From Pseudomonas phage UF_RH7: a stretch of DNA of 58,217 nt. Both the position numbers and the translations under genes were made by a program. The stretch is from sequence record OR589135.1; one strand, written 5' to 3'. The notes beneath the pieces are model-generated. The model saw only the letters and a list, made by a program, of their open reading frames with translations, ran no database searches and had not been told where the DNA came from. Positions 3,002-58,170 of this stretch are shown here, piece after piece; the stretch's first letter is position 1, and each line of letters begins with the position of its first letter.

Positions 3002-3295
3002 TTATTGGTCGATTTCATTAGGCAGACGTTCAAAATCATCCCTGGAAATCACATCCTTCCCGACGATCGCTTCGATCGCCAGCGGCACCGCCGGCGGAAT
3101 CGTCCGTCGATTGAGTGCGGAGTATAAAGCATTGTCACTCGCGTATCCGCACGCGCGACAAACAGATGAAATGCCGCCTTTTTCGCCGAGATAGGCTGCG
3201 GCTATGCGAAACATAAAACGGCATCTTGCCAGGTATCGCTCCGATGGCGATAACGTCGGGTCAGTGACCCACGCCGGCAGCGGGAAGTTCTTCAT
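3002..3295 (-). CDS. Small HTH DNA-binding protein (putative early regulator).
   Basis: 97 aa. Helix-turn-helix-like segment SSVCRACGYASDNALYSALNRR. First gene of the leftward operon from the divergent hub. Confidence 0.45.
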   Translation of the reverse strand: MKNFPLPAWVTDPTLSPSERYLARCRFMFRIAAAYLGEKGGISSVCRACGYASDNALYSALNRRTIPPAVPLAIEAIVGKDVISRDDFERLPNEIDQ

Positions 3296-3472
3296 GCACT
3301 ACCTCTCTTTCTCTCTTTTAGCAGTAATGTGAAACATCCTACTCTAGAAGAAATATCAAAATCAATGTGAAAAAGTATTTGACAACAATTTCAGGTTAGG
3401 CCATTCTGATTTGGCGGCGAACGAGAGTCGCCATTTTACAAAAACTGTTAATCATTTTTCGGAGAAGAAACC
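3296..3472. promoter_or_regulatory. Divergent intergenic control region: perfect -35 TTGACA at 3379-3384 and direct repeats AATGTGAAA at 3326-3334 and 3364-3372.
   Basis: 177-bp gap between divergent genes. Consensus -35 hexamer but only a weak -10. Repeated 9-mers are candidate operator sites. Confidence 0.4.
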
Positions 3473-3907: not shown

Positions 3908-5227
3908 TTGTTCCAGAAGGGGGTAGTCTTGACCGAGCATAAGCTAGACCTGGATAAACTTGTAGCCGATCGAAACGGCCATTCCGTTTTCGGGCCATCC
4001 GGCAGTGCTATGTGGTCGACCTGCGCCGGCTCGCTTATCCCCAACTTGCTCGCTCCTGATGAAACGTCGTTCGAAGCCGCCGAAGGCACCGTGGCGCACG
4101 CCATAGCTGAGGAATGGCTGAAAACAGGCATCAAGCCCAAGCACCACCTGGGCACGACGCAAATAGTCGAAGAAAACGGCCTAAGATTCGAAATTGTGAT
4201 CGACGTCATAATGTTCGATTACATCAAATCGTATGTCGACTGGGTTCGCTTCCTTCCCGGTCAGCATTATGTCGAAAGGCGGGTCGATTTTTCCCGGCTT
4301 ATGCCGATACCGAAGCAAACGGGTACTGCCGATTTCATCGCGCTGGAGCACGGCAAGATGTGGATCAGAGACCTGAAATACGGCGCTGGCGTATACGTTG
4401 AGGTCGAAAACAACACCCAGGCGCTGCTGTATGCCCTCGGGGCGTTCTACGAATACGATGAAATCTATGATATTCAAGAGATTGACATCGGAATCGGCCA
4501 GCCTCGAATGGATAATTTCAGCACCTGGACCATTTCACGCGAAGAATTGCTGTCATGGGAACCGTATTTCAGGGAAACTGCAGCAGCGGCATGGAAAGTC
4601 AACGCGCCGCGCCATCCTTCAGTGAAGGGTTGCCGGTGGTGCAAGGTCAAAGCGACCTGCGGCGCCCAGGCTAAACTTCAGGAAGAGCTGGCAACGTTGG
4701 CGTTTGACGACCTGGCGGAAGACAAAACGGAACAGGACATCGAAGCGTTGAAAAACAGGATTACGGACGACCTTGAGCCGTATAAACTGGAGTTCGTCTC
4801 TCCGAGTGACCTTACCGTGGAGCAGATGGCCATCCTCGTACCGTATCGCCGCCTGGCGGAAATGTGGTGGAAGTCAATCGAGGATGAACTGGAAAAACGC
4901 CTGCAGGAAGGGGCGAAAGTGCCAGGCTATAAACTTGTCGATGGGCGAAAGTCGCGAGACTTCATCAACGAGAAAAAGGCAGCAGAGGAATTGGAGTGGC
5001 TAGGCCTCGAACCGGGTGAGATTTTTGAGCGTAAAATGATCTCGCCGGCGGAAGCTGAAAAACGTCTTCGCAAAAAGGGGTATCGCATGGCTGACATGCC
5101 GTCCCTTCTGAAAAAGATCGTTTATGCCAAGCCAGGGAAGCCAACGATGGCACCCGAAAGCGACAAAAGGGAAGCAGTGCAAGACATGGCCGGTGACGCG
5201 TTCGAAAGTATGGACGACGACCTGTAG
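3908..5227 (+). CDS. PD-(D/E)XK Cas4/RecB-like nuclease (DUF2800-like) with C-terminal Cys cluster; acidic tail ...SMDDDL.
   Basis: 439 aa as listed in the ORF track, which uses a TTG start at 3908. The real start is probably TTG at 3929 with SD aaggggg, because 3908 lies inside the upstream hairpin. CRWCKVKATC Cys motif. Paired with a gp2.5-like SSB as in DUF2800/DUF2815 modules. Confidence 0.6.
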   Translation: MFQKGVVLTEHKLDLDKLVADRNGHSVFGPSGSAMWSTCAGSLIPNLLAPDETSFEAAEGTVAHAIAEEWLKTGIKPKHHLGTTQIVEENGLRFEIVIDVIMFDYIKSYVDWVRFLPGQHYVERRVDFSRLMPIPKQTGTADFIALEHGKMWIRDLKYGAGVYVEVENNTQALLYALGAFYEYDEIYDIQEIDIGIGQPRMDNFSTWTISREELLSWEPYFRETAAAAWKVNAPRHPSVKGCRWCKVKATCGAQAKLQEELATLAFDDLAEDKTEQDIEALKNRITDDLEPYKLEFVSPSDLTVEQMAILVPYRRLAEMWWKSIEDELEKRLQEGAKVPGYKLVDGRKSRDFINEKKAAEELEWLGLEPGEIFERKMISPAEAEKRLRKKGYRMADMPSLLKKIVYAKPGKPTMAPESDKREAVQDMAGDAFESMDDDL

Positions 5228-5280: not shown

Positions 5281-5880
5281 ATGGCTTTAGAAGTCGCTAA
5301 GAAAGTAAAAAACGCCGTTCTGTACACCAACGGCTGCATTCGCATCGACGGCGTTCGCGCTTCGTTCCCTCACCTGGATAAGCCATACGCAGGTGAAGAC
5401 GGCGGCACACCGGCTTACGGTTTGGTGAGCCTGCTGGACAAAACCACTCACAAAGAGGCGAAAGATCTCATTGTTGAGCGGATTAACGAAGTCCTGGCGC
5501 AGAACAAAAATGCGAAAGTTGCTGCTGATCGCAAATTCATCCGCAACGGCGACGACTCTGCCCGCGATGAAGAGAACGGCCATTGGACAGTATCCGCGCG
5601 CGAAACCAAGCGCCCTAGCATCCGCGATAAGGATAAGTCGGTGCTGTCACCTGAAGAAGCCCTGGATAAGATCTACGGTGGCTGCTTCGTAAACGTGCTT
5701 ATCCGTCCGTGGTTCCAGGATAATAAGTACGGCAAGCGCGTTAACGCAGGTCTGGTAGCGGTTCAGTTCCTCCGAGACGGCGAGGCCTTCGGTGAAGGTC
5801 GCATCGACGACGAAGAGGCGTGGGATGATGTCGACGACGGAAATGAAGGCTTCACCGACGATGATGAAGACGGCCTGTAA
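5281..5880 (+). CDS. T7 gp2.5-like single-stranded DNA-binding protein (DUF2815-like) with acidic C-terminal tail ...DDDEDGL.
   Basis: 199 aa. Pattern similarity to T7 gp2.5 (YGLVSLLDK...LIVERINE; GCFVNVLIRPWFQ...VNAGLVAVQFL). Acidic tail as in gp2.5, but the terminal residue is Leu instead of Phe. Confidence 0.65.
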   Translation: MALEVAKKVKNAVLYTNGCIRIDGVRASFPHLDKPYAGEDGGTPAYGLVSLLDKTTHKEAKDLIVERINEVLAQNKNAKVAADRKFIRNGDDSARDEENGHWTVSARETKRPSIRDKDKSVLSPEEALDKIYGGCFVNVLIRPWFQDNKYGKRVNAGLVAVQFLRDGEAFGEGRIDDEEAWDDVDDGNEGFTDDDEDGL

Positions 5881-6000: not shown

Positions 6001-8106
6001 ATGTCCCAAACCGTAATCAACCTTGACTACGAAAGTAAATCGCCGGTTAACCTAAAGACGGAAGGGTTAGACCGGTATTCCGCGCATCGAGATACCGAAG
6101 TGATGATGGCCAGCTGGTCAATTAACGAAGGTACTGTCCAGCACTGGGATTACAACAACGGCCGCATGCCAGGCGAACTTCGCGAAGCGCTTGAAGATCC
6201 TGACGTGGAGAAGTGGGCATTCAACGCTCAATTCGAACGCATCATGACCCAGCGCGTTCTGAAGATAAAAACGCCATACGAGTCTTGGCGCTGTACGATG
6301 GTGCTGGCCTACATGCAAGGTTTCTCCGGCACGCTTGAACAGGTAGGCCGCAACGTCGGTCTACCGGATGACAAGCAGAAAATGGCAGACGGCAAACGCC
6401 TTATCCGTCTATTTTGCACGCCCCAAAAGCCCACAAAAAACCAGCCGCATATCTGGCGCGATCTGCTTACCGACCCAGACGAGTGGGAGCATTTCTGCCT
6501 GTATAACATCCGAGACACCGAAACCGAGATGGCCATCAAGCGCCGGCTGATAAAGTACCCAGTCCCGGCCTCCGAGTGGGCCCTGTACGCGCTTGACCAA
6601 CAGATCAATGACCGCGGAGTTCCGGTCGACATGGATTTCGTCAACAATGCAATCTGGATGGCGGCGCGCCGAAAAAAGGAACTCATTGCAGACCTGAAAA
6701 AGATCACGAAACTCGCTAACCCAAACTCCACGCCTCAGCTGCTCCCGTGGTTAAAAGAACGCGGATACCCGTTTGACGACATCCAGAAAGATACGGTGAA
6801 AAAGGTTGTTTCGATCCCTCTCGGAAAGCTGAAGCGCCAGCTGGATATTCGCCAAATGCTCAGCGTCGACGAGTACCTCGATGCAGATGACCCAGGAACT
6901 GTTCCTGTTGAAAAACAGCAGGAGATGAATCGCGCGCTGGACGTTCGGAAGAATGCCTCGCGCATCAGCATTAAAAAATACAACGCCATCGAGGCGGCGC
7001 GCGGCGAAGATGACCGGTTCCGGTTCTCTCTGCAGATGCACGGAGCCAGTCGGACAGGCCGATGGGCCGGGCGCCGGCTGCAGACGCAAAACCTTCCCCG
7101 GACGCCGAAGTTCCTGGAGGAAGACGAGGACTTGGAAATCGCTACCGAGATGATTCGCGCCGGCGAGTATGACATGTTCCAGCTCTATGTCGGGGAGCCG
7201 ATGGAAGCCCTGGTTGGCCTTGTACGATCGTCAATCCGCGCGTCAGAAGGCCGTGAACTCCGGGTGTGCGACCTTGCCTCGATTGAATCCGTGGTTATCG
7301 GCTGGATGTGCAAATGTGCGTGGCTAATGGGCGTTCTCGACCGCGGGCACGATATTTATCAGTCGTTCGGTGTCCATTTGTTCGGCAAGCCGTATGAGCG
7401 GGTAACGAAGGCAGAACGAAACATCTCCAAACCACCAACACTCGGCTGCGGCTACCGCCTTGGCGGCGGCGAGATGCGAGACGGAAAGAAAACCGGCCTG
7501 TGGGGCTACGCAGAAAACATGGGCGTAAACATGACTCAAGACGAGTCGATTTACGCAGTAAAAGTCTTCCGTGAACTCTGCCCGGAAATCGTTCAGACCT
7601 GGTATGACCTCGAAAGGGCTGTAGAGAAATGCGTCAGAACCGGGGCAACCGTTCAATGCGGTGTCATTCGGTTCGAGATGAAAAAACCGTACCTTTGTGC
7701 CGTCCTGCCGAGCGGGCGCCGCCTCTACTACTTCAAGCCGAGGATCGAAACCAAGCAGTTCGAGGGTAAAACCGGTCCATACACCAAGAAGAGCTTCAGC
7801 TACGAGGGCCAGGATCAGAAGACAGGCCAATGGACGCGAATTTACTCCCACGGTGGTAAGCTGGTGGAAAACTTCGTTCAGGCGATCGCCCGTGACATCA
7901 TCAAGGCCGGCTTGCTTCGCGCAGACCGCGCGGGCTTCGACATCGTGATGCACGTTCACGATGAAATCGTCACCGAGCAGCCGAAGAACGATGACGTTCG
8001 CACAGTGGCGCTTCTGTCCGAGTGCATGACGGCACCGATCAGCTGGGCGCCAGGACTTCCGCTCAAGGCCACCGGCTGGGCGGGGCAGTTTTACAAGAAG
8101 GACTGA
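6001..8106 (+). CDS. Family-A DNA polymerase with 3'-5' proofreading exonuclease domain; no acidic tail.
   Basis: 701 aa. Exo I DxE (LDYESK). Pol motif A (VCDLASIESV), motif B-like (KPPTLGCGYRLGG), motif C (MHVHDEIV). Confidence 0.85.
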   Translation: MSQTVINLDYESKSPVNLKTEGLDRYSAHRDTEVMMASWSINEGTVQHWDYNNGRMPGELREALEDPDVEKWAFNAQFERIMTQRVLKIKTPYESWRCTMVLAYMQGFSGTLEQVGRNVGLPDDKQKMADGKRLIRLFCTPQKPTKNQPHIWRDLLTDPDEWEHFCLYNIRDTETEMAIKRRLIKYPVPASEWALYALDQQINDRGVPVDMDFVNNAIWMAARRKKELIADLKKITKLANPNSTPQLLPWLKERGYPFDDIQKDTVKKVVSIPLGKLKRQLDIRQMLSVDEYLDADDPGTVPVEKQQEMNRALDVRKNASRISIKKYNAIEAARGEDDRFRFSLQMHGASRTGRWAGRRLQTQNLPRTPKFLEEDEDLEIATEMIRAGEYDMFQLYVGEPMEALVGLVRSSIRASEGRELRVCDLASIESVVIGWMCKCAWLMGVLDRGHDIYQSFGVHLFGKPYERVTKAERNISKPPTLGCGYRLGGGEMRDGKKTGLWGYAENMGVNMTQDESIYAVKVFRELCPEIVQTWYDLERAVEKCVRTGATVQCGVIRFEMKKPYLCAVLPSGRRLYYFKPRIETKQFEGKTGPYTKKSFSYEGQDQKTGQWTRIYSHGGKLVENFVQAIARDIIKAGLLRADRAGFDIVMHVHDEIVTEQPKNDDVRTVALLSECMTAPISWAPGLPLKATGWAGQFYKKD

Positions 8107-8108
8107 CC

Positions 8109-8378
8109 ATGACTATCAGAGAATCAAAGGTCGAAAGCGATATTCGGAAATATGCGGAAAAACGCGGCTGGTGGCAGTGCAAGTTCACGTCTCCAAGCCT
8201 GCGCGGCGTGCCAGATCGGATATTTATTCGAGCAGGCAGACACGTTTTCATCGAGGTGAAGAGACCCGGCAAAAAGGCAACAGCTCAGCAGAAAAAGCGC
8301 CACGTTGACATGCGTGAAAAAGGTGCTGAAGTTTACGTCATCGACTGCGTGGAGGATGCATATGCGATACTCGAGTGA
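8109..8378 (+). CDS. VRR-NUC domain nuclease.
   Basis: ATG at 8109, 2 nt after the polymerase stop. Motif RGVPDRIFIRAGRHVFIEVKRPGKK (PD-(D/E)XK, VRR-NUC-like). The ORF-track start at 8022 lies inside the polymerase gene. Confidence 0.7.
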   Translation: MTIRESKVESDIRKYAEKRGWWQCKFTSPSLRGVPDRIFIRAGRHVFIEVKRPGKKATAQQKKRHVDMREKGAEVYVIDCVEDAYAILE

Positions 8379-9876
8379 CCTTTACGAGACAATCCGGCGC
8401 CGGTTCGCTGGTGTTGAGCTGCAGGAAAATCAGCTACACCTCTATCAGGAGGACGCGATAGACTTCCTCGATACGAACCGTTATAGCGCGCTGTTCATTG
8501 ACATGGGCTTGGGGAAAACGATCATCTCCCTGACGCTGGCGTCCCGGCTTTTGAACGACTTCAAGGCCAACAGAGTCCTGGTCATAGCACCACTCCGCGT
8601 GGCCAATACCACCTGGCCGAACGAAATACGCTTGTGGGAACACACGGCTGGGTTCGATTTCACGGTGCTGACCGGCAGCGCTGAAGAGCGAATGACCGCG
8701 CTCAAGGAAGGCATGCACCGCAACTGCCCGATATTCATCATCAATCGCGAGCAGATCGAATGGCTGGCCGACATCTACGGCAACAAATGGCCGTTCGACA
8801 CCGTGTTTGTCGATGAAAGCTCGTCGCTGAAGGATCACACGACAAAACGTTTTAACGCGCTGAAAAACGTGCGCCGGTACATCCGCCGTTTGCACGAACT
8901 CACCGCGACGCCGGCGGCCGAGACATACTTGCACCTCTTCGCCCAAATTTACCTCCTGGATCAGGGAAAGCGCCTTGGCAAAGACATGCGTAATTTCACT
9001 GATAAATATTTCACATACAATCATTACAATCGCAAGTATAAGCTCCGCCCCGGCGCCGAAGAGGAAATCGTCAACCTGATTTCCGACATTTGCCTCGTCA
9101 TGAAGCGAGAAGACTACCTGGAATTCCAGCAGCCGATCTTCCACAACGTGATGATCGACATGTCGGCTAAGCAGCAGGCGCTATACAAAACGATGGCAAC
9201 CGAGTTCATCGTCGAACTGGATAACGGCGTTGAGGTCGAAGCAGAAACCGCCGCCGCTCTATCGAGCAAGCTGCTGCAGATGGCCTCCGGCGTCCTTTAC
9301 GATACCGTCGATCTGGAAGACGCCACCACCGGCGACGTAAAGCAGTTGAAAAAAGTCTACGAGCTGCACCGGCATAAAATTGACGAACTGGAGCGAATTT
9401 ACGAAGAGGCGAACGGCGAACCGATCCTGGTATCCTACCACTTCAAATCGTCACTCGACCGGCTGAAGAAGGCCTTCCCGAAAGCGGTGGCGATGGACAG
9501 AGAAGGCAAGGCTGTCGCGCAGTGGAACAAGAAGAAAATCCCGATGCTCCTGGTCCACCCGCAGAGCGCCGGGCACGGCCTTAACCTCCAAAAGGGAGGC
9601 CATCACATCGTGTTCTACGACATCCCATGGTCGCTGGAGCTGTACCTGCAGCTGATAGGCCGACTCGACCGCCAGGGGCAGCAGCACCCGGTAATTGTCC
9701 AGCACCTGATTTGCAGAGGCACGGTCGATAACCTGGTTATTGCAGCGCTGATGAAGAAAAACGATGCGCAGGATGCGCTGTTCAGGATGCTGAAGCGCGC
9801 GAGAGCCAAACTGAAGAAAGACCGTGCGGCCAAAGTCGACCTGGCCACCGAGGCGTTTGACGACGACGATCTGTGA
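8362..9876 (+). CDS. SNF2/SWI2-family helicase (SF2 ATPase); acidic tail ...AFDDDDL.
   Basis: Walker A DMGLGKT. DEAH-like VFVDESS. Helicase C motifs (QSAGHGLNLQ). Start chosen at ATG 8362 (GGAGG 6 nt upstream), overlapping the VRR-NUC end. Confidence 0.8.
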   Translation: MRYSSDLYETIRRRFAGVELQENQLHLYQEDAIDFLDTNRYSALFIDMGLGKTIISLTLASRLLNDFKANRVLVIAPLRVANTTWPNEIRLWEHTAGFDFTVLTGSAEERMTALKEGMHRNCPIFIINREQIEWLADIYGNKWPFDTVFVDESSSLKDHTTKRFNALKNVRRYIRRLHELTATPAAETYLHLFAQIYLLDQGKRLGKDMRNFTDKYFTYNHYNRKYKLRPGAEEEIVNLISDICLVMKREDYLEFQQPIFHNVMIDMSAKQQALYKTMATEFIVELDNGVEVEAETAAALSSKLLQMASGVLYDTVDLEDATTGDVKQLKKVYELHRHKIDELERIYEEANGEPILVSYHFKSSLDRLKKAFPKAVAMDREGKAVAQWNKKKIPMLLVHPQSAGHGLNLQKGGHHIVFYDIPWSLELYLQLIGRLDRQGQQHPVIVQHLICRGTVDNLVIAALMKKNDAQDALFRMLKRARAKLKKDRAAKVDLATEAFDDDDL

Positions 9877-43555: not shown

Positions 43556-44163
43556 GCTTCGTCTCCCAGGTTCAGGTGGGTGCAGCCTCGCATGCCTTCC
43601 CGGACGATGCGCCATAACACGACGGCCTGATGGCGGGCATCATCGATGCCGATGTGCGGCGTGCCGTCGAATGGGGTGTTGGATCGGAAGCCGGGGAACA
43701 GGGAATTCAGCGTTCTGAAGCACCGGTGACCCCACCATGGCCACGGCGTACCGAGGTCATGTCGTGCATAGGCATTGGCCAGCCATAACGCATCTGCCAG
43801 TTCGTCGTTACTCCACACCTCAACCTGACTGCTATCCACGCCGTGCTTAGCAGAGAGGCGCTCTATCCAGGCGGTCAGTGCAAGCAGAGCTTCTATCTCC
43901 GGGACAGCATTGCGTTGATGATGCGTGATATGCAGGCGCGAAGCGTCACCCTGCCTCATCCACCACAACACGGTTTGCGGGTCGACATGGCCGCCGGAAA
44001 ACGCGCTGTCTATCAGAATATGGCTGTCAAACGTTGAGATGATAAGGTCATGCCGGTTTCCGGCACTAAGGTCGAACGCGACGGCCGAGATAGACAGCAG
44101 GGCAGCATTGGCCTTGGTGCTGAGGCTTTCGCAGTCCAGCATAATTCGCAGCGGGGGAATCAT
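43552..44163 (-). CDS. DEDDh-family 3'-5' exonuclease (DnaQ-like).
   Basis: 203 aa. Exo I MLDCESLS (DxE). Exo III-like HIGIDDARHQAV (H-x4-D). Confidence 0.5.
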   Translation of the reverse strand: MIPPLRIMLDCESLSTKANAALLSISAVAFDLSAGNRHDLIISTFDSHILIDSAFSGGHVDPQTVLWWMRQGDASRLHITHHQRNAVPEIEALLALTAWIERLSAKHGVDSSQVEVWSNDELADALWLANAYARHDLGTPWPWWGHRCFRTLNSLFPGFRSNTPFDGTPHIGIDDARHQAVVLWRIVREGMRGCTHLNLGDEA

Positions 44164-44699
44164 AGTTCATCATCCTCTTCAGGTGCTGGCGCAGCAGCAG
44201 GTTTTACGGCGGGCGGGAATGCCCAGGCATGCAGGTCTGCCAGCAGCTCCATGCCTTCTTTTTCGTCCATCATCGGCAGCGCCAGCAGGCGGCTCTGCAG
44301 CGAATCCGGCAGCTTCGGTTCAACGTTCTCAGCGTCCTTGGCCTTCTGCCATGCGCCTTTCTGCGTTACCGGCGGCTTGACGCTGGCCGGGAATACAGCT
44401 TCGACGCCGTGCAGTGCCGCCTGGGTGGCGAGGTAGTTGAACGACCCTTGGCACTTCTCGGCGGTCTCTTCCAGCAACCACTGCATTTCCTGCAGGTCGC
44501 ACGCCGTGGACTCCAGCAGCTCGTTCTGCAGCATGCCGGTGACCAGGTGGCGGATCGTCGGGTAGAAGCCCACCAGCGCGCGGGTCTCTTCGCCAGGGTT
44601 CTTCGACTCCAGGCCTTTCTCTTTCAGCTGGTGGAGGATGAACTGGTATTTGTCGCTGGTGATGACGTAGGCATCGGCGACGCGGATTTCGATTGACAT
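44160..44699 (-). CDS. Hypothetical protein with acidic tail ...APEEDDEL.
   Basis: 179 aa. Own promoter upstream. Confidence 0.5.
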   Translation of the reverse strand: MSIEIRVADAYVITSDKYQFILHQLKEKGLESKNPGEETRALVGFYPTIRHLVTGMLQNELLESTACDLQEMQWLLEETAEKCQGSFNYLATQAALHGVEAVFPASVKPPVTQKGAWQKAKDAENVEPKLPDSLQSRLLALPMMDEKEGMELLADLHAWAFPPAVKPAAAPAPEEDDEL

Positions 44700-49402: not shown

Positions 49403-49617
49403 AGGCTCCCTTTCGTTATCAGCATGAAGTCTTCCCGGTACGCTGCCTTGAGCGTGCCATCGGACATCAAGGATGGCAGTTCGTGGGTGAACACTGGGCG
49501 CCCGAGACGCTTTTCAACGTCTGCGTGGAACGCGCTGAACTCGCACATCATGATGCCGGTGAATCCGGTCAGGATAATGCCTTGTGCCTGGCTTATCCGT
49601 GGCTCTTTTGTTGGCAT
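49399..49617 (-). CDS. Small hypothetical protein (72 aa).
   Basis: ORF only. Confidence 0.35.
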   Translation of the reverse strand: MPTKEPRISQAQGIILTGFTGIMMCEFSAFHADVEKRLGRPVFTHELPSLMSDGTLKAAYREDFMLITKGSL

Positions 49618-50078
49618 GATGCAGCTCCTTTCATCAGGTCATCGACCAGGTTCATGCGCTGCAGGATCTCCTGCATCCGTGCCCGCTCATGACTGCCTTC
49701 CGGCGTGTCTTTGTAGCACAGCTCAGTAACGTTCCGCGCGGTATTGATCAGCGACGTCAGAATGCCGAGGCGAACCATGCGCGTTTGGCTGTTAGCGAAC
49801 AGGGTACTGAAGTCTTTGTTCAGCTCGACGCCGCGCTCTTCCGGTGACGGCTTCGACTCGAACTTCGGCTGGCACCCCTTGATCCAATAGCGGATGTTCG
49901 GGTTGCGGCCGGTCTTCACGATGCTGCCGTCGCGCGCCAGGTTGGACAACGTGTTCGAAACGTTGGCACCGTTCACACGGCCGGCCAGTGCGCGCCGGAC
50001 GTCGCCTCCATGGCACCCTGGGTTCTCAGCGATAAAGTTCAGAACCAGCGGGCGGTTCGGTGATGGGGGTTTGCTCAT
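49593..50078 (-). CDS. Winged-helix transcriptional regulator-like protein.
   Basis: 161 aa. N-terminal wHTH-like LVLNFIAENPGCHGGDVRRALAG...LSNLARDGSIVKTG. Confidence 0.45.
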   Translation of the reverse strand: MSKPPSPNRPLVLNFIAENPGCHGGDVRRALAGRVNGANVSNTLSNLARDGSIVKTGRNPNIRYWIKGCQPKFESKPSPEERGVELNKDFSTLFANSQTRMVRLGILTSLINTARNVTELCYKDTPEGSHERARMQEILQRMNLVDDLMKGAASCQQKSHG

Positions 50079-50663: not shown

Positions 50664-51014
50664 TCACTCAACGCGGATGACAACGATGGACGTCATCGCG
50701 CGGTACTGGGACGACACGAAAGAGCCGGTCTCCACGGTGAACTTGAGTTCGGGATTCGCCTTGGTCAGGCGGCTGGTGGCGTTGTTGATGATGCGGCGGC
50801 GGGTCAGCACCTCGCCCGTCATCCAGTCTCGCATGCCGGCAGATGACAGGCCTTCCGGGGCAATCATCGTTTCGCTGTATGCCTGGCCGACGCCCAGCTG
50901 GCTGATAAGACGATTGCGGGAGGTGGAGTAGCGGTCGGCCTTGCTGACGCCTTCTTCTGGCGACATCATGCTGGCTTCCAGCTCGGTATCCAGGGCAGTT
51001 TTGGTCTCGGTCAT
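50664..51014 (-). CDS. Hypothetical protein, first gene of the leftward early operon.
   Basis: 116 aa. Confidence 0.4.
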   Translation of the reverse strand: MTETKTALDTELEASMMSPEEGVSKADRYSTSRNRLISQLGVGQAYSETMIAPEGLSSAGMRDWMTGEVLTRRRIINNATSRLTKANPELKFTVETGSFVSSQYRAMTSIVVIRVE

Positions 51015-51120
51015 CGGGTTCTCTCTTTCCGTGTTCCTGTTAAACGTGTTTGAAGATTAGCTGCTACAAGTTTTTAATGCAATCTCTTTATGAAACTATT
51101 TATTGTTCATCCGCCATCCT

Positions 51121-51440
51121 GGAATTTTTCAGAACGGGCTGGGTCTGTGAAGTAAGCCTCATTGACCGGCCAGGGTGCTGAAGTAAGCCAGGGCGCCTGG
51201 TCCTGGGTCATTGCGGCATCGAGGACAACCGGCCAGGGTTCTGAAGTAAGCGACGCCAGCCGGCCAGGGTTCTGAAGTAAGCCAGGGCGCCCGGCACCAT
51301 CCAGGCGCATCTCAACTTTCATTTCAAAATAATCGGGAAAATTTTTGGAACGGGCTGGGTCTCTGAAGTAAGCGGCGGGGGTTGGCATTGGCGCCTGCCG
51401 GTTTTTCTATACCGAAAGCCGGGGTGAAGTAAGCCGGGAA
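51121..51440. repeat. Iteron array: six copies of the core TGAAGTAAGC (51148, 51179, 51242, 51272, 51364, 51425). Three sit inside 25-32-bp units CCGGCCAGGGT(G/T)CTGAAGTAAGC(CAGGGCGCC) and two inside 35-bp units AATTTTT(C/G)(A/G)GAACGGGCTGGGTCT(G/C)TGAAGTAAGC. An AT-rich tract lies at 51318-51345.
   Basis: Read directly from the sequence. Non-coding, between the divergent operons. The ORF 51107-51388 is an artefact of the repeats. Confidence 0.75.
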
Positions 51441-51546
51441 CTACCGCATTTCATGGCGCCTGCCTCGCGTGCGTATAAAGGATCACGCGCGCGTTTCACT
51501 ATCCGGCCGGGCGGATTGGTCATTTACAAAAGATTTACGGAAAGGC

Positions 51547-51575
51547 TTGCAATAAAGTTTTTAATGCCCTACATT
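51547..51575 (+). promoter_or_regulatory. Candidate promoter TTGCAA-17-TACATT for the rightward small-gene block.
   Basis: The hexamers and the GTTTTTAATGC spacer motif are shared with other putative promoters (51068, 54964 inverted). Confidence 0.4.
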
Positions 51576-51621
51576 AGTCACATCACCGCAGAACGCGGAC
51601 ACTTAGAAAGAGGGTTTTATC

Positions 51622-51921
51622 ATGGTTAAATTTACCCGCAGTCAGTACATGAAAGGCGAATGCACGCATCAAGATTACTATATGCAATTCGCCACCCCGC
51701 AGATCGTCGCCCGTGTGAAACGCTTTTGTGATTTAAAAGTGCTGCGATCATCCACTGACGAACATCTTAATGATGTTTACCGTCTTACCCACTGGGATAA
51801 TGTGATCGGCGCTTTCCCCGCCGACGTCGCCGCAATGATGCGTGAAGCGGGCGATTATCCAACGCTTGCCGGTTCGGTCAGTCTGGCGAAAGCCGTTGCC
51901 CGTTCACTGATTTCGGAATAA
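51622..51921 (+). CDS. Hypothetical protein (99 aa).
   Basis: SD agagggtt before the ATG. Lower-GC block. Confidence 0.45.
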   Translation: MVKFTRSQYMKGECTHQDYYMQFATPQIVARVKRFCDLKVLRSSTDEHLNDVYRLTHWDNVIGAFPADVAAMMREAGDYPTLAGSVSLAKAVARSLISE

Positions 51922-57859: not shown

Positions 57860-58170
57860 CGCCCGCTACCCTGGCCGCCTGGTTTGTGGGGGTGTGGGCT
57901 GGCCGTGGTGCGCATGCATGGCTTGTTGTCTGGCTGTTGCGTGGCTGGGTGTGCTGCATGGCGTGGTGACGGTCTGGCATGGTGCGCATGCGTGGCTTGT
58001 TGCCTGTTGCTCTGATGTTCACGGGGTGGCTACGGCTACATGGTGCGCTGTATGCCCTGCTATCTGCGTATCAATCAACTAACAACGATTTAAATTTATT
58101 TGTCTAGGCTGGCTGGTCACCCGGTAGCGGTCAAAAGGAATCACATCGTAATCGGTCAAAAGGTACTCCT
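57860..58170. repeat. Right-end non-coding region with extreme G+T strand bias (almost no A across about 57880-58020). Direct repeats TGGTGCGCATGC(A/G)TGGCTTGTTG at 57906 and 57980, a partial at 58039, and CGGTCAAAAGG ×2 at about 58128 and 58160.
   Basis: Read from the sequence. The ORF 57894-58082 is judged spurious. Confidence 0.65.

Follow-up and report, generated by a model that had tools for sequence, protein, structure and literature searches.

A conserved array of direct repeats between divergent operons of phage UF_RH7, a candidate replication origin of Chi-like phages

The window analyzed here is the whole 58,217-nucleotide stretch of sequence record OR589135.1, which is the complete genome of 'Pseudomonas' phage UF_RH7 (announced in PMC11008205), a Chi-like phage of the Casjensviridae. 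At 51.1-51.4 kb it carries an array of six asymmetric direct repeats. The array is found across the family in the same position and orientation, selection acts on its cores, and a gene of the DUF7609 family is linked to it. The reading we prefer, while holding it tentatively, is that the array could be the replication origin of the Chi-like phages (Casjensviridae), i.e., a cis-acting site in duplex DNA that would be bound by a protein and that occurs once per genome. The original prediction, made from the letters of the window, had proposed either an origin or an array of operators, and these remain the right leading pair of hypotheses.

The core of the repeat, the 10-mer TGAAGTAAGC, has six matches in the whole window, all on the plus strand and all within 51148-51434, with starts at 51148, 51179, 51242, 51273, 51364, and 51425. 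In 100 dinucleotide-preserving shuffles, the mean count was 0.10, the largest was 2, and none of the shuffles (0/100) reached six. The six direct copies announced in the original prediction are thus exactly what the sequence contains, and the two classes of longer units that it described were both found. Class A, of the form (A)CCGGCCAGGGTnCTGAAGTAAGC or (A)CCGGCCAGGGTnC-TGAAGTAAGC, has three copies (51165-51188, 51227-51251, and 51258-51282), two of which run on into CAGGGCGCC. Class B, of the form AATTTTT..GAACGGGCTGGGTCTnTGAAGTAAGC or AATTTTT..GAACGGGCTGGGTCTn-TGAAGTAAGC, has two copies (51123-51157 and 51340-51373).

Numbered along the plus strand, unit 1 (class B, AACGGGCTGGGTCTG-TGAAGTAAGC, 51133-51157) has the A/T tract AATTTTTCAG on its 5' side (51123-51132). 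It is followed by three class A units: unit 2 (ACCGGCCAGGGTGC-TGAAGTAAGC, 51165-51188), unit 3 (AACCGGCCAGGGTTC-TGAAGTAAGC, 51227-51251), and unit 4 (AGCCGGCCAGGGTTC-TGAAGTAAGC, 51258-51282), the first and the last of which continue into the class A extension. Unit 5 belongs to class B (AACGGGCTGGGTCTC-TGAAGTAAGC, 51349-51373) and unit 6 is short (AGCCGGGG-TGAAGTAAGC, 51417-51434). The cores are irregularly spaced (31, 63, 31, 91, and 61 bp), and distances near whole helical turns were found between units 1-4 of UF_RH7 only. A k-mer census of the genome revealed no other clustered repeat with k of at least 10.

To assess the conservation of the array, we started with the closest relative, Serratia phage vB_SmaS-Smarc1 (Smarc1), which is 92% identical in DNA sequence. 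All six cores are kept in this phage. Substitutions affect 0 of their 60 positions and 25 of the 242 other positions of the array (Fisher p=0.0066). The three bases immediately 5' of the cores are hypervariable, since 5 of 18 changed. As judged from this comparison of sequences, the cores are under purifying selection. We then used an alignment (A2) that adds to these two genomes the more distant Pectobacterium phage MA12 (Newforgelanevirus) and a metagenomic relative, L105. MA12 and L105 show ~60% protein identity in the flanking gene, yet their units 1, 3, 4, and 5 are homologously placed, with core spacings of 93, 31, and 92 bp. Unit 1 aligns with the first unit of both, and the 31 bp between the starts of units 3 and 4 are fixed in the four genomes. 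The segment ACCGGCCAGGGTnCTGAAGTAA at unit 3 and GCTrGGTCTCTGAAGTAAG at unit 5 are invariant (4/4 genomes). Unit 2 is kept in Smarc1 and missing from the equivalent place in MA12 and L105, in which unit 6 is degenerate (TCTGTAAATAG).

With the conserved phrog_3199 gene, the second of the rightward ones, as a guide, we retrieved the matching gaps of other genera. In every genus retrieved in this way, the array was present there with an unchanged orientation. Phage Chi has five copies of TTCAACCGGGTAACTTTTT(C/G)AAGTAAG, at ~53.6-53.9 kb of NC_025442. Five copies were also found in Smarc5 and PibeRecoleta (Redjacvirus), and four in Xanthomonas phage XAP3. Among more distant phages, Pseudomonas phage SS2019XI has five copies, Xanthomonas phage FoX4 (Foxquatrovirus, outside the Casjensviridae) four, and Burkholderia phage BcepNazgul three. 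Every relative examined has between three and six units, and the hosts of these phages include Salmonella, Serratia, Providencia, Pectobacterium, Xanthomonas, Pseudomonas, and Burkholderia. Hence, the repeats are conserved in close and in very distant relatives, rather than absent or degenerate as the original prediction had envisaged for the case that it was wrong.

The consensus built from 44 copies in 10 genomes, AACCGGCnAGGTTTnT(S)AAGTAAG, is bipartite and asymmetric, with an information content of ~2 bits across AAGTAA. A search with the 32-nt consensus unit matched 127 phage records, of which ~120 are Chi-like, usually at three to four places each. Nearly all of these matches fall on unannotated DNA; elsewhere the DNA is mis-called as an open reading frame (ORF). 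The spacings are irregular but common between genera: 49/43/71/51 in Chi and Smarc5, (72)/45/71/51 in PibeRecoleta, and 52/73/51 in XAP3. In SS2019XI they are 37, 44, 35, and 33. Irregular spacings that are conserved between genera imply a defined higher-order complex. Searches in other collections returned no array: in IMG/VR, GGGTNCTGAAGTAAG matched 102 times by chance and always singly, a scan of the same database seeded with the DUF7609 protein (116 aa) gave nothing, and no array was found among the plasmids of PLSDB with the 32-mer unit. A double Chi-type core matched bacterial and archaeal genomes eight times, and we discarded these matches because all are unrelated tandem repeats in chromosomal contexts of metagenome-assembled genomes, with neighbors including a P-type ATPase, LemA, and a GTPase.

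The motif has switched in several lineages. In Serratia phage JS26 (Dunedinvirus), the locus of the array lies at ~6.7-7.0 kb and holds six copies of GGTCTsGCTGGCTTTCTCAAGTACC (variant TCAAGTACC). Burkholderia phage AH2 has at least six units (C/T)GAAGGGCACC (variant GAAGGGCAC), and BcepNazgul, from the same host genus, retains GAAGTAA. Erwinia phage pEp_SNUABM_08 has three copies with a GAAGTGA variant and, like its relative L134, shows GAAGTGATAG, while Sphingomonas phage Carli has unrelated repeats at the matching place. Such lineage-specific switches argue for a reader that co-evolves with its sites and is encoded by the phage, and against a universal host factor. The protein that would read the array is thus probably phage-encoded, as far as sequences can tell.

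The array occupies a non-coding gap of 607 bp (51015-51621). On one side of it is a leftward gene (50664-51014) and on the other a rightward gene (51622-51921), in agreement with the predicted placement between divergent operons. The leftward gene, on the minus strand and first of its operon, encodes the DUF7609 protein (116 aa; Pfam PF24582), and a DUF7609 gene is the first leftward gene beside the array in every relative examined, a link absent from the original prediction. Its putative promoter, PL (51054-51082, minus strand), consists of a -35 hexamer TTGCAT (51082-51077), a 17-bp spacer, and a -10 hexamer TAATCT (51059-51054). In alignment A2, GAAGATTAG, AATGCAA, and both hexamers are invariant, and Chi-type genomes have TTGACA-17-TATTGT at the matching place of the gap. 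The putative rightward promoter of the early operon of small genes, PR (51547-51575, plus strand), consists of TTGCAA, a 17-bp spacer, and TACATT. Together with its leader it forms the best conserved block of the region, which is the sole segment that megablast matches to MA12. As PL and PR fall below the threshold of a generic consensus scan, we consider both as putative. The array is upstream of both, and in the family it generally lies ~50 bp upstream of the DUF7609 promoter. The nearest core is ~65 bp from the -35 of PL and 113 bp from the -35 of PR. Among genomes, the distance between the array and PR ranges from ~110 to ~350 bp, and that between the first core and the DUF7609 start codon is 129-139 nt in 7 of 10 genomes (135 nt in UF_RH7, as in most relatives). 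Promoters within the units themselves were considered and rejected: as sigma-70 promoters, their reverse complement has a -35-like TTGAAA or TTCAGA and no consistent -10, and in a sigma-54-like reading of TTGGCATTGGCGCCTGC the spacing is wrong. The one match of the promoter scan in the array (51151-51124) is not conserved in Smarc1.

How might such an array act as an origin? A phage-encoded protein would bind the 4-6 asymmetric units of ~24 bp, each composed of a left arm CCGGCnAGG, a T-rich linker, and a right arm SAAGTAAG. As all the units point in the same direction, binding would build a polar nucleoprotein complex between the divergent promoters. The negative supercoiling behind the polymerases leaving PL and PR would help to open adjacent A/T-rich DNA, the candidate sites being 51085-51130, beside PL, and the tract 51306-51350. 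The PrimPol-SF3 helicase (407-2992) would then be loaded and prime DNA synthesis. The reader might be the DUF7609 protein, in which case the succession of iterons, promoter, and small gene mirrors that of iteron plasmids. It might also be the conserved PrimPol/helix-bundle part of the primase, which would take the single-stranded core as a priming site, in the way NrS-1 PrimPol takes TTTGGTTA.

Several features seem to speak for an origin in our analysis. The repeats are direct, asymmetric, and confined to a single locus, and they share the order of iterons, promoter, and small gene just mentioned. They lie between divergent promoters, where negative supercoiling favors strand opening, and they form the only family-wide single-copy repeat cluster besides the one close to cos. 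Finally, the array can be uncoupled from PL. In L133, a metagenomic Chi-like contig (Logan SRR7498027), an inserted ORF of 180 aa (815-1357), for which Pfam gives no match, separates the array from the DUF7609 promoter. This insertion indicates that the tight spacing between array and PL is not obligatory and that the array tolerates uncoupling, as would an autonomous site.

Other observations weigh against an origin. The organization is not the 'classic' one that had been proposed, as the spacing is irregular and not helically phased at ~22 bp. Inspection of the aligned regions revealed no conserved DnaA box (TTATCCACA-like) or IHF site (WATCAANNNNTTR), and the weak DnaA-like matches in the region (7 of 9 positions) are not conserved. 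The AT-rich tract pointed out in the original prediction is present between units 4 and 5 (51306-51350; 45 bp, 69% A+T vs. 43.6% genome-wide), but it is specific to the UF_RH7/MA12 clade, being partly conserved in MA12 and L105 and absent from Chi-type arrays, and it is not especially unstable. Duplex stability is lowest in three other places, namely 4-43 at the left end, 3340-3379, and the region of the PL promoter; within the array gap, the least stable 40-mer (51064-51103, 16th genome-wide) coincides with PL. The replication genes are clustered at the left end, at 0.4-9.9 kb, and remain ~7 kb away from the array when the cos ends are joined. Conservation is poor at the C-terminus of the primase, whereas the motif hardly varies. 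The near-fixed distance between the first core and DUF7609 fits promoter-coupled regulation equally well. The GC skew is uninformative on the origin, because the switch in skew coincides with the switch in the direction of transcription.

Regulation of this sort is a serious alternative, if a somewhat unlikely one. The array would then control transcription, with a phage protein, for example DUF7609 as an autoregulator or an early protein of the PR operon, timing or balancing the divergent promoters. The complex might shift expression from the PR operon, which is early, to the 'middle' operon of PL, in the manner of phi29 p4 or of the Mu operator and enhancer. The array lies exactly between the two promoters, and regulator genes commonly adjoin their own sites. 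Unit 1 is at a near-constant distance from PL and from the DUF7609 start in very divergent genomes, which keeps a role of the upstream-activator type possible. The conserved irregular spacing would suit a specific looped or wrapped complex. The flanking operons also differ in timing, as seen in JS26 only and after checking the equivalence of the locus: gp01-13 are early, non-essential, and a hotspot of transposon insertions, which the authors attribute to first injection, gp15-45 form a middle operon, and the replication genes are middle-late and essential (PMC8754663; bioRxiv 10.64898/2025.12.19.695335). Moreover, a 13-mer present in the spacers of both promoters (see below) suggests that there are regulatory sites in the region. 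Against this, no core overlaps the promoters at the distances given above, the distance to PR varies widely, the PL of Chi-type genomes is a near-consensus sigma-70 promoter that should need no activator, and the motif is found at one locus only, not at other promoters. The gene inserted between array and PL in L133 also fits poorly. Finally, pairs of operators and regulators usually diverge fast, whereas the core is invariant among phages with 15-35% protein identity.

If a phage protein reads the repeats, which one could it be? Three binders had been proposed. The winged helix-turn-helix protein (49593-50078, MarR-like) was found only in the UF_RH7/Smarc1/MA12 clade, and is hence an unlikely reader of a family-wide motif. 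The small helix-turn-helix (HTH) protein (97 aa, 3002-3295) fares little better: its gene is family-wide and always precedes the primase gene, but the protein is 15-31% identical among phages with an identical AAGTAAG core. The third, the primase-helicase (PrimPol/PriCT_2/SF3-helicase protein, 861 aa, 407-2992), stays a candidate in part. A domain that binds the origin as in P4 alpha is expected at the C-terminus of the primase, and this end is the least conserved: residues 745-861 are 17-26% identical among phages sharing the core, compared to 30-51% for the overall protein among phages. No homologue was found with the last 200 residues as query. In contrast, the module formed by PrimPol and the helix-bundle domain (HBD) is still a candidate reader, on conservation and precedent. 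The PrimPol domain (residues 54-173) is the best conserved part, with 45-56% identity, and the helicase domain of the window protein matches NrS-1 PrimPol. The latter offers a precedent of an 8-nt site, as its helix-bundle domain recognizes the priming sites TTTGGTTA and GTG (PMC8718748). We searched for covariation of the motif class with the small HTH protein, the primase, or DUF7609, and found no domain that tracks the motif. A further protein, DUF5405 (179 aa, 44160-44699, minus strand), was rejected as a reader, since Chi-type phages lack this P2 Orf83-like protein. It matches PHROG 154, labelled 'replication initiation protein', a label that appears to stem from the position near P2 gene A and to be untrustworthy.

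The other candidate reader is DUF7609, on adjacency and essentiality. The window protein matches PF24582 with E=3e-5 and 24.7 bits, below the 27-bit cut-off, whereas its homologues reach 1e-23 to 1e-35. The family has ~500 representatives, all stand-alone proteins of 85-170 aa, and identity between lineages is 13-39%. The AlphaFold model is confident (pLDDT 82) and shows an alpha-beta-alpha-beta-beta arrangement and a disordered N-terminal arm containing Arg and Ser, with no recognizable DNA-binding fold. Two isolated hypothetical genes of JS26 are essential, and one of them is gp15 (bioRxiv 10.64898/2025.12.19.695335; PMC8754663). It holds the DUF7609 position by the array, is 14-23% identical to DUF7609 proteins, and shares their C-terminal (I/V)TRT. 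A more specific proposal, which we regard as doubtful, is that the array and the adjacent DUF7609 make up a new origin-recognition module, in which a protein of ~12 kDa would read a bipartite 24-bp iteron and recruit the PrimPol-SF3 helicase. In a speculative variant of it, the same nucleoprotein complex would also mark the boundary of the first-injected DNA.

Such a boundary might also be the main role of the array, which we consider improbable. The array would end the segment of early genes that is injected first, and pause or anchor the DNA as the T5 iss does. Speculatively, the remaining DNA would then enter, possibly driven by transcription from PL, which points into the DNA still outside. 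The JS26 insertion hotspot, gp01-gp13, is read as first-injected, and the array comes directly beyond gp13 (bioRxiv 10.64898/2025.12.19.695335). The segment to the right of the array spans 6.8 kb (11.7% of the genome), compared to 7.9% for the first-step-transfer segment of T5, and the T5 iss is untranslated, full of repeats, and conserved in T5-like phages (bioRxiv 10.1101/866236). On the other hand, the JS26 authors propose a continuous, lambda-like slowdown, and the boundary of the hotspot was not mapped to the array. The DnaA boxes and palindromes typical of the T5 iss are absent here. The hotspot could equally reflect a higher copy number beside an origin.

The array could also be another type of single-copy cis site. 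It might act like a centromere or an anchor to which a ParB-like or nucleoid-associated phage protein binds, or it might assist packaging. A direct-repeat array at a single locus is compatible with this, and the corresponding leftward operon of SS2019XI and L135 includes a gene for an HTH_ParB protein. We nevertheless consider it quite improbable. These are lytic cos phages with no need of partition, no ParB-family match was found among the UF_RH7 proteins scanned, and parS is palindromic whereas the units are asymmetric. For packaging, there are separate, lineage-specific repeats by the cos end, where terminase-binding sites are expected.

These repeats form a second cluster (36-227), close to the genome end and directly 3' of the primase-helicase gene. 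Three direct copies of CCCTAAGT and an inverted ACTTAGGG lie there in very AT-rich DNA, and the genome's least stable 40-mer is 4-43. The repeat motifs at the same place in relatives (L105, 3160-3440; Chi L129, 224-505; JS26 L128, 9634-9918) differ by lineage, with GTGCCCTAAGTTG, GGGTTACAAGTT/AGGTTACAAAC, and ATTGCGTAGG. The cluster is probably a cosB-like terminase-binding region, and is also an alternative candidate for the origin.

A last possibility is that the region encodes a non-coding RNA or a small protein, which we regard as very improbable. An ORF of 93 aa on the minus strand (51107-51388) does span the array, and similar ORFs are annotated in JS26 (gp14, MN505213, 6676-6918), FoX4 (gp72, NC_055839, 54554-54757), and SS2019XI (gp55, NC_053013, 39178-39669). 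We rejected it as spurious, since no reading frame is conserved: core spacings of 94/31/91 in UF_RH7 and 93/31/92 in MA12 destroy any shared frame. The reverse complement of the repeat has no stop codons, and the translation of JS26 gp14 is a repeat of VLEKASQTQ. The ORFs of JS26, FoX4, and the window are very probably artefacts, and that of SS2019XI probably so. Regarding RNA, a scan of the array region with Rfam gave no match at E<=1, and the fold energies of both strands are unremarkable (z of -1.6 and -1.0). JS26 gp14 was dropped from the published expression map, with 0 RNA-seq reads at 5, 20, and 40 min, although reads mapping to multiple places in the repeats may have been discarded (PMC8754663). 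This single observation in JS26, with its caveat, suggests that the array is untranscribed, and the array is upstream of both promoters.

The control region of UF_RH7 has other motifs. The 13-mer AAGTTTTTAATGC is present in the spacer regions of PL (51068-51080) and PR (51555-51567), in the same absolute orientation. It is only partly conserved in MA12 and may be an operator separate from the TGAAGTAAGC repeats. A second conserved motif, TTTTTCTATACC (51402-51413), is a half-palindrome of TTTTnTATAGAAAA, and GGTTTTTCTATACCGA is invariant in alignment A2. The motif trails some cores by ~20-40 bp in most genomes. Copies of the GTATAGAAA type are found 3' of cores in Chi, PibeRecoleta, XAP3, MA12, and L105, and the near-palindromic TTTTnTATAGAAAA is family-wide, with one to six occurrences per control region in these same genomes. 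Downstream of the cores, GGCGCCYG(S)C occurs four times (51192, 51286, 51390, and 51455), and MA12 has GGCGCCTGCCG three times; it may be a third binding motif or a piece of extended units. Finally, the leader of the rightward early operon has a small hairpin, CCGC-AGAAC-GCGG (51586-51598), and the block that holds it, CATCACCGCAGAACGCGG, is invariant in UF_RH7, Smarc1, MA12, and L105.

In addition to the primase-helicase and small HTH genes, the replication cluster comprises a PD-(D/E)XK exonuclease (3908-5227), an Enc34-type single-stranded DNA-binding protein (SSB; 5281-5880), a family-A polymerase (PolA; 6001-8106), and an SNF2-type helicase (8305-9876). Between the small-HTH/primase and the exonuclease-SSB-polymerase operons there is another divergent and AT-rich control region (3296-3472), which includes 3340-3379, one of the least stable stretches of the genome. 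Just inside the right cos end, a G/T-rich stretch (57890-58050) has a strong positive GC skew and direct repeats TGGTGCGC at 57906, 57980, and 58041, the first two of which extend to (CA)TGGTGCGCATGCrTGGCTTGTTG. The last 13 bases of the deposited genome (58205-58217), AGATCGGAAGAGC, are a remnant of an Illumina adapter. The 12 bases ahead of it, GGGGCGCGGAGC, resemble the cohesive end of Chi, GGTGCGCAGAGC (PMC4342425), which indicates that the window ends at the physical cos ends, plus the contaminating adapter. The phage is named after Pseudomonas aeruginosa, yet its nearest relatives infect Serratia (Smarc1) and Pectobacterium (MA12), and the Pseudomonas-infecting member of the family examined here, SS2019XI, is much more distant. 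The host assignment may need a second look.

Repeat arrays are already well known as a kind of element at control regions and origins. What is notable in this one is that its core is common to phages of gamma- and beta-proteobacteria, that it is linked to DUF7609, and that it is mis-annotated in several records. The genome papers of Chi, Utah, and JS26 leave the array unmentioned, a literature search with the core sequence returned only primers, and in the searchable literature we found neither a mapped origin for Chi-like phages nor a description of the array. The Casjensviridae form a large family. Its members include Chi, the classic flagellotropic phage, and many phages considered for therapy. 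In these phages, an unannotated array of 300 bp is the most conserved non-coding feature and is fixed beside a gene that is essential in JS26. It is a concrete candidate for the origin or for the switch from early to middle genes, and DUF7609 is a concrete candidate for its partner. The AAGTAAG core together with the linked DUF7609 gene provides a usable signature of Chi-like control regions.

The comparison with known systems helps to place the array. The phi29 p4 sites and the repressor operators and enhancer of Mu are multi-site switches between divergent phage promoters. The array resembles them in having sites between divergent operons with different timing and in its conserved geometry. 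Unlike them, its sites are off the promoters, have a single orientation, and are at a constant distance from only one promoter. The T5 iss is also an untranslated, repeat-rich, and family-conserved region at the inner edge of a terminal block of early genes (bioRxiv 10.1101/866236). It differs in being made of DnaA boxes, inverted repeats, and palindromes within a terminal repeat, whereas the array consists of direct repeats in a genome without terminal redundancy.

In the origins of P4 alpha (type I repeats TGTTCACC of ori/crr) and of the Pri-Rep proteins of SaPI/PICI, the C-terminal domain of the helicase reads repeats that are found next to its gene or immediately 3' of it. UF_RH7 likewise encodes a fusion of PrimPol and SF3 helicase, and its candidate origin consists of short repeated motifs. 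In contrast to these systems, the array (51.1-51.4 kb) is ~7 kb away from the gene (0.4-3.0 kb), and the primase is least conserved at its C-terminus, whereas the motif hardly varies. The repeats that do lie 3' of the UF_RH7 primase gene are the lineage-specific ones close to cos. The priming sites of PrimPol proteins (TTTGGTTA and GTG for NrS-1, GTG for pRN1 ORF904; PMC8718748) are another parallel, since the helicase is homologous to that of NrS-1, the layout of PrimPol, helix bundle, and SF3 helicase is shared, and the PrimPol domain is the best conserved part of the primase. As in a priming site, the core of the array is short (7-9 nt), invariant, and strand-specific. Unlike in a priming site, conservation extends over ~24 bp, with a second arm CCGGCnAGG, and this fits recognition of duplex DNA better than a short single-stranded signal.

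The iteron-based theta origins of pSC101, P1 oriR, F, and R6K, and the lambda ori, also consist of direct asymmetric repeats of ~20-25 bp, in one orientation and at one locus. There too, the repeats are directly upstream of the promoter of a small adjacent gene transcribed away from them, and their cores are strongly selected. A/T-rich DNA beside the repeats is a possible further parallel. The array departs from these origins in its irregular spacing (31-94 bp, vs. ~22 bp phased), in lacking conserved DnaA and IHF sites, and in its neighbor, as DUF7609 (~12 kDa) is not a winged-helix initiator of the Rep family. It also departs from them in that its motif has been conserved over far larger evolutionary distances than the iterons of plasmids.

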